Assembly (NCBI GenBank): GCA_016177165.1
Contig: JACOVT010000038.1
Span: 1 to 26,805 of the forward strand
DNA from: Candidatus Micrarchaeota archaeon
Lineage (GTDB): Archaea > B1Sed10-29 > JACOVT01
Length of the DNA stretch: 26,805 nt
Direction of reading: 5' to 3'
The position numbers and the translations under genes were made by a program. Shown in pieces: positions 414 to 3,876 of this stretch. The notes under the pieces are model-generated. The model saw nothing but the letters and a program-made list of their open reading frames with translations. It searched no databases and was not told where the DNA came from. Each line of letters starts with the position of its first letter. The first letter of the stretch is position 1.

Positions 414-3164
414 CTAGCGGTAGCGCAGCAGCGCCCCTATCCCGCCGAAGCCTTGGAGGAACTGTTTCCCTTCAGCAGTTTCGGTAGAAATAATCTCTAT
501 GCTCGCGCCCGAAGATTCGGCGAGCTGGGTCAACTCTTCCATCAGCTCGGTGTCAGACTCCACCGACTGTTTTCCGCCGCAGTGGCAGCGGTAATCGCTA
601 TCGATTTCCTTGACCACACTCTCCACGATTTTGCCACAGTTGTTGCACTTTAACAGCAGCTTGCGCATCGCCAGCTCCTCCGAAAGCAATAGAATGTCAG
701 CCTTCCGCAACTCGAGCGCTTTGCGCGTCTCTTCCTCGCCGTAGCAGGCCAGCCCGCTCGTCACGACCTCCTTCAGGAAGCGGTTGACGAGGTCCCGCTC
801 TTTGGTTATTTCCATCTTTTCAATGACCTCATCGGCGTGCTCCACCAATTCCTTGATGCCCGTCTCATCAGTATAGCCGGTGTCGACCGTCCCGCGTATC
901 TTGTTCTTGACTTCGGTCTGGAGGTACTCGCCGTTGATGAAGTCGTACTTTGTCGGGCCCGACCCGCCCGCAATGATGGCCTTGATTTTCTTGTCGGAGA
1001 ACACACCATTGCACGCATCGCCAATTCTCTTGAAGAACTCGTGCACGGCTATCTCGTGAAGCCGCTGGAAACGCATAGCACTATTGTGAAGCATGAATCC
1101 GTTTGCCACGTATGACTCTTGCCTTGGTACGTTCAGGTCGCAGAACAGGATTCCATCGGGCTCGATTTTTTGCTTTTCCACCACATATGATGGTATCAGG
1201 TCTGAATCTAGTACTTGCCTGAGGAACAGGACAATCTCTTTGCATTCGGCTGACTTTTGCGGGTCTGTTTTTTCAAGCACGCGCTGCCAGTTCTCGAACT
1301 CCCTTAAGATGACCCGTTTGAACACCTTGCGCCCCATCGAGCGCTCGTTCCTGAAGAAATTGTTGCCAGTCCGGAACGAGCGGGTGTTGAGGCCCACCTG
1401 CCTAGCCAGCCTTAGCACGTGGCTGCCGCTCATTGGAATCTGGTCTATCCGCGAAGCCTCTTCACCCCTTCGCCTAATTTTACCAAACTTTTCGCGGCTC
1501 GTAAATCCGACAAATTTTATGAAATTGTTCAAGGAATCTTCATCGTTTATCTCAAGGCTGTATTGGAGTGAAGCGCTTTTGACTTTCCAGTTTGGCGGCG
1601 AGATCTTTTCCCTGAAGGAGGTTACGATGCCGAGCCTCAACAGCATCATCCTGAGCTGTTCCATTAGTTTCTTGCTGGTCGTGGTTATGCCTATCCTTCC
1701 AGAGCGTGATTGCACGTAACCTTCCGCGTCGAACAAGCCACGCGCAAACGCTGCAACAATGCTGTTTGGGGACCGCATTGCTGATACTGGGACTTCTGCG
1801 AGGGCGCTTGGCAGCAGGGCCTCGCCGAACTTGTCACGAATGATACCCGCGAGCTCCTTGCAGCAGATAGTTAGCTGGTAGTAGTTTTTACGCGGGTTAT
1901 GCCTTATCACCCCAACCAAGCCTAATGTTAATGCTATCCTTTTGTACTCGTCGAGAACTTCCTTGCGTTCATCATAGAGGCGGATTCTGTGTTCCTCCAC
2001 GCACCCATCGCCGATGGTGTAGCCTAGCAGCTGGGCAAACTCCTCGTCAAGGTATTCAGGCATTTTGAACGTTTTCGCATTCCTGACGTATCTCTCATGG
2101 AACAGCCCCTTGTCAATGCCGTAAATCTCCAACAGCTTGTTGATCTTTTCAAAGCCGATCTTGCCAATGCCGAGCTCGACCTTTGAAAGCGTTGCCTGCG
2201 CAATGCCGAGTTTCTTTGCCACTTCTCGTTGAAGCAGCCGCTTCTCGACGCGCTGGGTAGCCAGGTGTTTGCGTCCTTCTTCCGTTAGTTCGGGGGTCGG
2301 CAGTATTTTCAGGCCAAGAGGTATTCGTTTGCCTTCAAAGTTTATTCTCTTGACCGCCATGATGGTGTCTCCCTTGGCTAACTCGCCGGCGCTTTTCAAC
2401 CCAAGGCCGCGGCCATCCAGGCTAAAGAACCAGTGTTCAGGGGTTGCCACTATCCTGGCTGACGGGTATTTTGTCCTTATGAGGTATGCACTATCTGATT
2501 TTCTCTTGAACACTTTTGCGCATTCTGCCATTGTTGTCTGATAAGTTGACTGACTAACCGAGCAAACGCGGCCAAGGGGGGCTTTTCCAATCTGGCACAC
2601 CGCACCGTCGCCAAGCTGGATGAGGGAATCGCTTGCAATGCACTGACCGCCGACGTGGTGTTTTCCCGGTATGCCTGACGTCAGTTTTCGCAGTATGTCT
2701 ACCTTCTTGCCGTGGAGAGTGGCGACGATGGCTTCCCGCTTGTCCAACACGAACAGCCCGAACGTCTCCTTGTGTTCGATCATCTCCTCAAACGGCTTGG
2801 TGAAAAACGCGGAGTCGCACCGGTAGATCGAGAGCGGCACGGGCTCTGGAGGGACGAGCATGTACTGCTCTATCTTGCCGTTGATGCTGCCGCAATAAAT
2901 CGCAACGCCGTTCTCCGGGGGTTTGGGCACCCCCTTTATCGCTCCCATAATGCTCTCCAGCGCGGACTGCACGTTCTTGCGGGTCTGCTTGGACTTGATG
3001 TTCATCGCCTGCGACGCCTCTTCTCTCAGGCGGTTGGCCACATCGGCAACGTTGGCTCCAGGTGGAATGAGCACGCTGATCAACTCGGTTCCCTCGCCGC
3101 GGATCGACTGCAGGAAGCGCAGTTTCTTCTTGAACTCGAAGAACTCTTTCGAATCGGTCTGCAT
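414..3164 (-). CDS. prf1: Peptide chain release factor aRF1 (archaeal eRF1), intein-containing precursor (916 aa; about 396 aa after splicing)
   Basis: Motifs: GTELIS, A.NIKSKQTRKNV (NIKS), Y.CD..F, GKHHVGGQ|SAMRF (GGQS once the intein is removed), a C-terminal CxxC...CxC insert and GFGGIGALLRY. Start set at ATG 3164 (MQTDSKEFFEFKK) because 3251 would overlap the divergent pyrH. Confidence 0.95.
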   Translation of the reverse strand: MQTDSKEFFEFKKKLRFLQSIRGEGTELISVLIPPGANVADVANRLREEASQAMNIKSKQTRKNVQSALESIMGAIKGVPKPPENGVAIYCGSINGKIEQYMLVPPEPVPLSIYRCDSAFFTKPFEEMIEHKETFGLFVLDKREAIVATLHGKKVDILRKLTSGIPGKHHVGGQCIASDSLIQLGDGAVCQIGKAPLGRVCSVSQSTYQTTMAECAKVFKRKSDSAYLIRTKYPSARIVATPEHWFFSLDGRGLGLKSAGELAKGDTIMAVKRINFEGKRIPLGLKILPTPELTEEGRKHLATQRVEKRLLQREVAKKLGIAQATLSKVELGIGKIGFEKINKLLEIYGIDKGLFHERYVRNAKTFKMPEYLDEEFAQLLGYTIGDGCVEEHRIRLYDERKEVLDEYKRIALTLGLVGVIRHNPRKNYYQLTICCKELAGIIRDKFGEALLPSALAEVPVSAMRSPNSIVAAFARGLFDAEGYVQSRSGRIGITTTSKKLMEQLRMMLLRLGIVTSFREKISPPNWKVKSASLQYSLEINDEDSLNNFIKFVGFTSREKFGKIRRRGEEASRIDQIPMSGSHVLRLARQVGLNTRSFRTGNNFFRNERSMGRKVFKRVILREFENWQRVLEKTDPQKSAECKEIVLFLRQVLDSDLIPSYVVEKQKIEPDGILFCDLNVPRQESYVANGFMLHNSAMRFQRLHEIAVHEFFKRIGDACNGVFSDKKIKAIIAGGSGPTKYDFINGEYLQTEVKNKIRGTVDTGYTDETGIKELVEHADEVIEKMEITKERDLVNRFLKEVVTSGLACYGEEETRKALELRKADILLLSEELAMRKLLLKCNNCGKIVESVVKEIDSDYRCHCGGKQSVESDTELMEELTQLAESSGASIEIISTETAEGKQFLQGFGGIGALLRYR
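1083..2642 (-). mobile_element. Intein (520 aa) with LAGLIDADG homing endonuclease and XRE-type HTH, inserted between Q and S of GGQ|S
   Basis: Starts at Cys1 (TGC 2642-2640, CIASDSLI). Block B ATPEHWFF, LAGLIDADG motifs LLGYTIGDG and FARGLFDAEG, block F/G FCDLNVP...YVANGFMLHN (AAT 1085-1083), and Ser at +1. Confidence 0.95.
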
Positions 3165-3166
3165 GG

Positions 3167-3196
3167 GTTTTTTAAAGCTGGCGGAGGTTAAAAAAC
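3167..3196. promoter_or_regulatory. Back-to-back TATA elements of the divergent prf1/pyrH promoters, forming a 9-bp inverted repeat
   Basis: GTTTTTTAA (3167-3175), 12 nt, then TTAAAAAAC (3188-3196), inside a 40-bp intergenic gap. Each A/T run lies about 24-30 nt upstream of the start codon it points to. Confidence 0.6.
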
Positions 3197-3204
3197 AGGT
3201 ATAC

Positions 3205-3876
3205 ATGCGCTTGGTTCTGTCGCTGGGCGGCTCGATGGTGTTTGACGGCAAGCCGCGCGTCGACTACATACGCAAAGTCGCCTCGCTGGTCACAGGCCTC
3301 AAAGCCACCGTCGGAGTAATAGTGGGTGGCGGGACGGCCGCGCGCGACTACATAGCCGCAGCAAAGGAGTTCGGCGAGGACAACTTCGACCTCGACTGGC
3401 TGGCCACGACCGTCACTTGGGCCAACGCCCGCTTGTGCGCGCCCGCCTTCGGGGGCAGGTTCTTCTACTCCATAGAGGATGCGGGTGAGTGGCTCCTCTC
3501 TGCGCCGGGCCGCACCGCGCTGCTCGGCGGGACCCACCCAAACCAGACCACTGACACAGTGGGCGCAATGCTTTCCGAGAAGATAGGCGCTGACCGCTGG
3601 GTGAACCTTTCCAACGTGGCGGCAGTGTACGACAAGGACCCCAAGAAGTTCCGGGACGCCCGCAAGTTTTCAACAATGACCCATCAGGAACTCGTCCAGC
3701 TTGCCACGGGGCTGGACAAGCGCGGTCCGGGCGAGAACTTCATAATAGACACGCCCGCCGCGCGCGTGCTCGCCCGTTCGAACATCGAGGCCCACTTCGT
3801 CAACGGCAGCGACCTGTCACAAGTCCGGCTGGCACTGCAGGGCAAGCGCCATGATGGAACGGTTGTCAAGGGCTAG
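3205..3876 (+). CDS. pyrH: Uridylate kinase (archaeal type, 223 aa)
   Basis: MRLVLSLGGS, IVGGGTAARDYI, GGTHPNQTTD, NLSNVAAVYDKDPKKF, HDGTVV. Start at ATG 3205; the longer 2923 ORF runs antisense into prf1. Confidence 0.93.
   Translation: MRLVLSLGGSMVFDGKPRVDYIRKVASLVTGLKATVGVIVGGGTAARDYIAAAKEFGEDNFDLDWLATTVTWANARLCAPAFGGRFFYSIEDAGEWLLSAPGRTALLGGTHPNQTTDTVGAMLSEKIGADRWVNLSNVAAVYDKDPKKFRDARKFSTMTHQELVQLATGLDKRGPGENFIIDTPAARVLARSNIEAHFVNGSDLSQVRLALQGKRHDGTVVKG

Follow-up and report, generated by a model that had tools for sequence, protein, structure and literature searches.

The question raised by contig JACOVT010000038.1 of a Candidatus Micrarchaeota archaeon (26,805 nucleotides, the whole stretch analysed and hereafter called the window) is what kind of element has entered the gene for its archaeal class-I release factor, aRF1, precisely at the codons for the catalytic GGQ motif, and what this insertion means for translation termination. 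The translation of the minus-strand open reading frame (ORF) at 414..3251(-) is that of such a release factor broken by a large insert. The frame reaches upstream as far as a TTG at 3251; its likely start is the ATG at 3164, which agrees with the public gene call and with the N-termini of homologues, giving a gene at 414..3164(-) (stop codon 414-416) that encodes a precursor of 916 amino acids (aa). Its identity follows from Pfam, from the translation and from Foldseek matches to 4af1 and 5lzt. The N-extein (aa 1-174, 2643..3164(-)) comprises domain 1 with the NIKS and YxCxxxF (here YRCDSAF) motifs and then the start of domain 2 up to GGQ, and matches Pfam eRF1_1 and profile positions 2-42 of eRF1_2. 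The C-extein (417..1082(-)) supplies the rest of domain 2 followed by domain 3 with a zinc-ribbon insert, and matches eRF1_2 positions 41-132 and eRF1_3. The three eRF1 families are thus all found, at E-values of 1e-12 to 1e-27, with the eRF1_2 match cut in two by the insert. NIKS, YRCDSAF and GGQ are all present in the aRF1 translation, the frame runs uninterrupted over its 916 aa, and the motifs of both the exteins and the insert are intact. A whole-genome search found this as the single locus bearing eRF1_2 in the assembly (847 kb, 108 contigs, 78.9% complete).

The translation and a motif search give the two junctions of the insert as ...GKHHVGGQ/CIASD ... FMLHN/SAMRF... (slashes mark the splice points). 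The insert (1083..2642(-), 520 aa) therefore lies between Gln(-1), whose codon at 2643-2645 belongs to the GGQ codons at 2643..2651(-), and Ser(+1), whose AGT codon at 1080..1082(-) specifies the C-extein nucleophile, i.e. the S of GGQS. The original prediction had placed an intein exactly at this GGQ/S boundary, and it was right to the base; the range then given, 1083-2651, consists of the intein (1083-2642) plus the three GGQ codons. The sequence shows the features of a class-1 intein, namely an N-terminal Cys, a block B of the form TxxH, a block F Asp, a block G His-Asn and a +1 Ser. Its N-terminal splicing region (2433..2642(-)) begins with the C1 codon at 2640-2642 and contains block A (CIASDSLIQLGDG, 2604-2642(-)) and block B (TPEH, 2433-2444(-)). 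The C-terminal splicing blocks F and G (1083..1148(-)) read ...FCDLNVP...FMLHN, with Asp502, His519 and the terminal Asn520 (codon 1083-1085(-)) as the last intein residue, and the insert matches Pfam Intein_splicing at 1.7e-9. Nested within it are a double-motif LAGLIDADG homing endonuclease domain (1509..2045(-), two Pfam LAGLIDADG_3 matches, 2.8e-29), with an acidic residue in each motif (AQLLGYTIGDG at 2004-2036(-) with Asp212; AFARGLFDAEG at 1719-1751(-) with Asp305), and, between the splicing and endonuclease parts, an XRE-type helix-turn-helix (HTH) module (2112..2258(-), Pfam HTH_3, 8.5e-9). This predicted set of splicing and endonuclease motifs is far beyond chance.

The structural predictions agree with this assignment. 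AlphaFold2, run on the whole precursor with an alignment of 68 sequences, gave a model with a mean pLDDT of 90.1, which Foldseek matched in the PDB to aRF1 and eRF1 structures (4af1, 5lzt and 3agk; TM-score on the target, TMt, 0.59-0.79), to the TliVMA intein (7qss/7qsu, TMt 0.71-0.79) and then to PI-PkoII, PI-PfuI and PI-SceI. The matches to intein crystal structures reached an E-value of 7e-23, so the model has a predicted HINT fold. When the intein alone was searched against PDB chains with phmmer, the matches were 7qsu, 7qss, 2cw7 and 1dq3. Judged by motifs and model together, the insert is a class-1 intein that houses a double-motif LAGLIDADG endonuclease and, in addition, an HTH module; the assignment is secure. 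The earlier statement that this is a homing-endonuclease intein with intact splicing residues is accordingly borne out by blocks A, B, F and G, both LAGLIDADG motifs, the Pfam matches and the fold model.

To judge how common such an insertion is, we searched the precursor against 5.8 billion protein clusters, which returned 107 aRF1 proteins with intein domains (505-1447 aa); where the sources give names these are all of DPANN type (Micrarchaeota, Diapherotrites/Iainarchaeum, Aenigmatarchaeota and Nanoarchaeota). The GGQ/C junction is found in 98 of the 107 clusters, eight more have GGM/C or GGW/C at the identical position, and one (P0078) has a degenerate N-junction. Of the 31 species genomes in the window's own phylum, six are filled, 24 are empty exactly at this site and one lacks an aRF1 match. 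In the 24 intein-free genes the matches to the two exteins meet at the same GGQ/S codon boundary, and the spliced product predicted for the window is colinear with the aRF1 of these 24 genomes. A second DPANN phylum, which includes a genome named Aenigmatarchaeota by NCBI, contains at least 68 genomes with a junction-crossing match among the 335 with an aRF1 match; about two dozen of these 68 have ORFs of ~534-572 aa, a length that fits mini-inteins. The GGQ/S insertion is therefore frequent, at roughly one species in five. The inteins fall into size classes, with 71 of at least 500 aa (~500-575), 25 of 400-499 aa, one of 271 aa and six minis of 138-141 aa; together with the empty alleles, these classes represent every stage of the homing cycle.

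In an alignment of the 90 aRF1 inteins of at least 400 aa, C1, the block-B His, both LAGLIDADG Asp residues, the block-F Asp and the His-Asn pair are invariant in all 90, the first residue of block B is always T or S, and Ser(+1) is invariant in the homologue alignment A2. The invariance of the catalytic residues suggests that splicing and endonuclease activity have both been kept under lasting selection. The HTH module is modelled as a five-helix bundle (precursor residues 295-359), and sequence matches in the PDB to intein residues ~124-192 are small HTH transcriptional regulators; the endonuclease probably uses the module as an accessory domain for DNA recognition. One of its residues, precursor Q312, does not vary among 68 aRF1 inteins. 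G029, the member of the 400-499-aa class that was inspected, has an intein without the module. In the inteins of 571-572 aa (G018, G019 and G027), a second HTH-like insert lies close to the C-terminal splicing region.

The distribution of the intein is patchy. On a maximum-likelihood extein tree of the phylum, the six filled tips need six state changes, no fewer than labels shuffled at random (mean 5.7), and strongly supported sister pairs differ in state (G019/G030, which belong to the same genus, and G027/G021). With 25 tips in the tree, a single ancestral gain would take at least nine precise losses. Across the 90 clusters the identities of intein and extein correlate moderately (r = 0.68); in some pairs the inteins resemble each other more closely than the exteins do (58% versus 39%), and in others two nearly identical hosts have inteins that are far apart (extein 80%, intein 39%). 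Such mismatches indicate horizontal transfer and independent invasions. The two LAGLIDADG motifs with their acidic residues, the sporadic presence and absence and the signs of horizontal spread are together those of a LAGLIDADG homing endonuclease.

We therefore consider it very probable, from the sequence features and the predicted fold, that the insert is a selfish, mobile class-1 intein with an XRE-type HTH and a double-motif LAGLIDADG endonuclease, residing at a site of the essential aRF1 that is among the most conserved in both DNA and protein. The precursor would be translated whole, after which the intein would excise itself by an N-S acyl shift at Cys1, transesterification to Ser(+1) and cyclisation of Asn520; splicing would rebuild ...HVGGQSAMRF... 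and free the 520-aa HTH-endonuclease. Because ribosome structures of eRF1 indicate that the GGQ loop must enter the peptidyl-transferase centre, the 520-aa insert at its tip would have to go, and only the spliced aRF1 could bring the loop there. Termination would then depend on efficient, probably constitutive, splicing. The unspliced precursor, which keeps the stop-codon-reading domain 1 as well as domain 3, could act as a dominant-negative binder of the A-site, and this should favour rapid splicing. When related cells exchange DNA, the freed endonuclease may cut an intein-free aRF1 gene at the GGQ/S-coding site, and repair of the cut allele would copy the intein in. The element would persist because any deletion that was not precise would ruin an essential gene. 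The genome also has a HemK-related archaeal Gln methyltransferase homologue (TIGR00537; 119 bits, above the cut-off), which makes methylation of the Gln after splicing plausible.

Some observations weigh against this explanation or limit it. The GC content at third codon positions of the intein (0.615) is below that of its own extein (0.77), which speaks for a mobile element, but it is low only in this comparison; the genome mean is 0.674, and the intein lies at the 16th percentile of the genome and is no outlier. The six inteins of the window's phylum are old and divergent, with identities of 33-44% and one pair at 63%. No recent transfer into the window's lineage is seen, and for this lineage vertical descent with many losses would fit about as well as repeated gains. 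At 78.9% completeness, a second, intein-free aRF1 could also lie outside the assembly. The dependence of termination on splicing, which the original prediction had put forward, is for this reason best described as probable, its basis being one aRF1 locus in a genome of that completeness.

The divergence of these inteins also suits an element that no longer moves at all, that is, a non-homing intein trapped in an essential gene and inherited vertically. In keeping with such a fixed remnant, the intein types roughly track their hosts, the 520-aa type being that of the window's order and the 571-572-aa type that of the sister families, and no near-identical intein was found in a distant host for the window's lineage, the closest (P0002) having 49% intein and 57% extein identity. 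However, all 90 large inteins keep both LAGLIDADG Asp residues and the motifs around them unchanged, which would not be expected of a long-dead endonuclease, and the degraded and mini forms show what decay at this site looks like. Descent by vertical inheritance only also runs into the precise losses counted above, and other parts of the family do contain pairs whose inteins are closer to each other than their exteins. We regard an immobile remnant as improbable for these reasons. A pseudogene, a chimera or an assembly artefact, with the real release factor in the unassembled 21% of the genome, might be suspected in an assembly of 108 contigs, but the unbroken 916-aa frame, the complete set of motifs and the confident model speak against it. 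Moreover, the same architecture recurs in ~105 independent clusters, and three filled genomes that are 92-98% complete (G007, G018 and G019) have no second aRF1 match. We give this explanation next to no credence.

The original prediction had also suggested that the intein could serve as a conditional switch, co-opted to sense redox state, metals or temperature and tuning termination through withheld aRF1 or through a dominant-negative precursor. The catalytic loop of an essential single-copy factor would indeed be a potent control point, stress-responsive inteins have precedents (a RadA intein study is cited in PMC4760082), and mini-inteins appear to be retained at the site in many genomes of the other DPANN phylum, as a run of ORFs of ~538-544 aa suggests. 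Against this, no feature of known conditional inteins was found. There is no Cys within five extein residues on either side of the insert (HVGGQ and SAMRF), and with Ser at +1 the known disulfide traps between C1 and C(+1) or between C1 and C(-3) are impossible here. Nor is a second Cys conserved across the 90 large inteins, where no Cys column besides C1 exceeds 53% and the window's other eight Cys residues (16, 27, 41 and others) fall in no conserved Cys column. The endonuclease active site is invariant, filled and empty alleles occur in sister species, and the six filled genomes among the 31 are scattered with no clade-wide fixation. Patchiness combined with conserved endonuclease residues is what a selfish element typically shows, and not what a domesticated regulator would. 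A precursor that binds stop codons would probably also be toxic, thus favouring fast constitutive splicing. The switch thus appears unlikely, and this part of the earlier interpretation is not upheld. More speculative is the idea that splicing is rate-limiting or stress-sensitive, the precursor acting as a natural dominant-negative at A-site stop codons that brakes termination (by stalling, readthrough or hibernation), with the HTH endonuclease possibly serving as a DNA-binding regulator. We consider this highly improbable; if it were true, archaea with tiny genomes would have gained a post-translational control on termination. The mobile, selfish intein set out above remains the explanation that we favour.

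With regard to the published record, we found no description of a natural aRF1 or eRF1 intein in the full-text literature that was searched. Novikova et al. (2016; PMC4760082) place aIF2/IF-2 (aIF5B-type) among the archaeal intein hosts, with 15 cases in their table, report few inteins in core translation components, and mention no release-factor intein in the main text. A giant-virus paper (PMC5871332) in which inteins and eRF1 are both mentioned was considered as a precedent and rejected, since it places no intein in eRF1. The product names assigned by the pipeline of the Joint Genome Institute (JGI) to some of the clusters already read "eRF1/intein/homing endonuclease". Rarity of the site is thus not supported, and of the two things that by the original prediction would remove its novelty, a common site and one already catalogued, the first holds. 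The site is common (~105 clusters, 6 of 31 and at least 68 of 335 genomes) and labelled in a database by the JGI, and no published description of it was found. What we report is a standard mobile intein at an insertion site that is unpublished so far as found, yet visible in databases and common.

A class-I release factor, interrupted at its catalytic GGQ loop, hence joins the list of intein hosts. Core translation factors had been regarded as poor in inteins, so aRF1 widens the reach of the rule by which inteins settle in the best-conserved functional motifs. The filled, empty, degraded and mini alleles spread over hundreds of DPANN species offer a natural system for intein biology, and the predicted dominant-negative precursor would make it a strong test of the speed required of native splicing. 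For annotation, aRF1 genes of ~900 aa should be expected in DPANN genomes and should not be taken for fusions, "HTH-domain proteins" or "LAGLIDADG endonucleases", as has happened in several public aRF1 records.

Some further observations concern the insertion sites in aRF1. Three metagenomic aRF1 proteins of 1187-1447 aa (P0069, P0074 and P0076) have a second intein, with junctions reading ..YLY[MQ]/C...HN/CDDH[YF]H.., so that the insertion point directly precedes the conserved Cys in the motif of domain 1 that recognises stop codons (YxCxxxF), and this Cys is the +1 nucleophile. Besides GGQ/S, aRF1 therefore has at least one other intein site, making at least two, both in functional motifs. 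The Ser(+1) codon is AGY in five of the six filled alleles of the phylum; the empty alleles mix AGY and TCN. In a sample too small to interpret, this bias is at most a weak hint of a target preference of the endonuclease or of shared ancestry. An XRE-type HTH nested in LAGLIDADG inteins recurs in other hosts, namely a beta-CASP RNase, MCM and UvrB (P0108, P0114 and P0117), in records named DPANN or Asgard. As to names, the NCBI titles of four filled genomes are Iainarchaeum (G018), 'Nanobdellati archaeon' (G007), 'archaeon' (G027) and Diapherotrites (G029); by the GTDB-based grouping all four share the window's phylum, and G007 its order as well. Among other members of the phylum set, the titles are Micrarchaeota or Micrarchaeia. 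For taxonomy, the source names given to DPANN metagenome-assembled genomes are unreliable.

The window genome (847 kb) is itself rich in inteins, which also interrupt MCM, RadA, RtcB, TopA, PolII-DP2 and CDC48 (contigs C32, C64, C49 and C14, C73, C102 and C22; loci L051-L057), RtcB being split over two contig ends; this abundance adds to the case for a mobile element in aRF1. The intein of TopA (topoisomerase IA) has an HTH_31 match beside its LAGLIDADG domain. A 786-aa open frame at the end of contig C59 (9739-12096, L058) carries three PT-HINT/Hint modules and, after them, a Tim44-like domain; it is not a classical intein.

The aRF1 proteins of the window's order vary in two other respects. 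Those of seven genomes (G001, G003, G004, G008, G011, G013 and G015) lack the stretch matching query residues ~835-870, the Cys-rich zinc-ribbon insert of domain 3 that is present in the window's aRF1. The ORFs without it are ~360-450 aa long, so that this domain-3 insert is a presence/absence polymorphism within one order. In five species belonging to three genera of one family of this order, f3 (G002, G009, G012, G016 and G017; loci L016, L020, L021, L024 and L025), the intein site is empty and the aRF1 reads ..SKHTKGGW/SQ[KR]RFER.., with TGG where the Gln codon of GGQ is expected. Whole-genome searches with eRF1_2 returned for these species the GGW gene and only a weak Pelota-like match. 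Among the 120 best database matches, 13 clusters have GGWSQ and seven have GGFSQ, and intein-bearing forms with GGM or GGW before the insert and SQ after it also occur. A TIGR00537 Gln methyltransferase above the cut-off was found in none of the six f3 genomes and in 21 of the 25 others in the phylum, a difference that amounts to a single phylogenetic event and carries no statistic. Burroughs and Aravind (PMC6514570) describe GGxSQ as the catalytic motif of archaeal Vms1-like release factors, which suggests, by analogy, that the second Gln of GGW-SQ could take over from the missing Gln of GGQ. The GGW-SQ family is a more surprising observation than the intein itself.

Finally, the aRF1 intein can be compared with known systems. 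The aIF2/IF-2 inteins listed in PMC4760082 are an earlier case of a core translation factor that hosts inteins; their host is an initiation GTPase, whereas that of the window is a release factor. The best matches to the intein part, in structure and in sequence, are the VMA inteins of Thermococcales (TliVMA, 7qss/7qsu, and PhoVMA, 7qst), at TMt values of 0.71-0.79 with Foldseek and 1.8e-15 with phmmer. Like the aRF1 intein, they combine a class-1 HINT domain with a nested double-motif LAGLIDADG endonuclease, and their insertion site is a conserved catalytic region in a protein that is essential. They differ in host and site, being inserted in the V-ATPase A subunit; the identity to the aRF1 intein is only 15-18%, and the XRE-type HTH is an extra part of the latter. 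PI-PfuI (1dq3), PI-PkoII (2cw7) and PI-SceI (1vde, 1lws) have the same bifunctional plan of splicing and LAGLIDADG cleavage, and also carry extra DNA-binding parts that lengthen the recognition site. The HTH_3 model does not match these accessory parts. Their hosts are RNR, DNA polymerase and VMA1, respectively, in contrast to the translation factor aRF1. The canonical intein-free aRF1 and eRF1 proteins (4af1, 3agk, 1dt9 and 5lzt/5lzu), for their part, share with the window's exteins the three domains and the NIKS, YxCxxxF and GGQ motifs; what sets the window's aRF1 apart from them is a GGQ loop broken by 520 aa, which splicing would have to rebuild.

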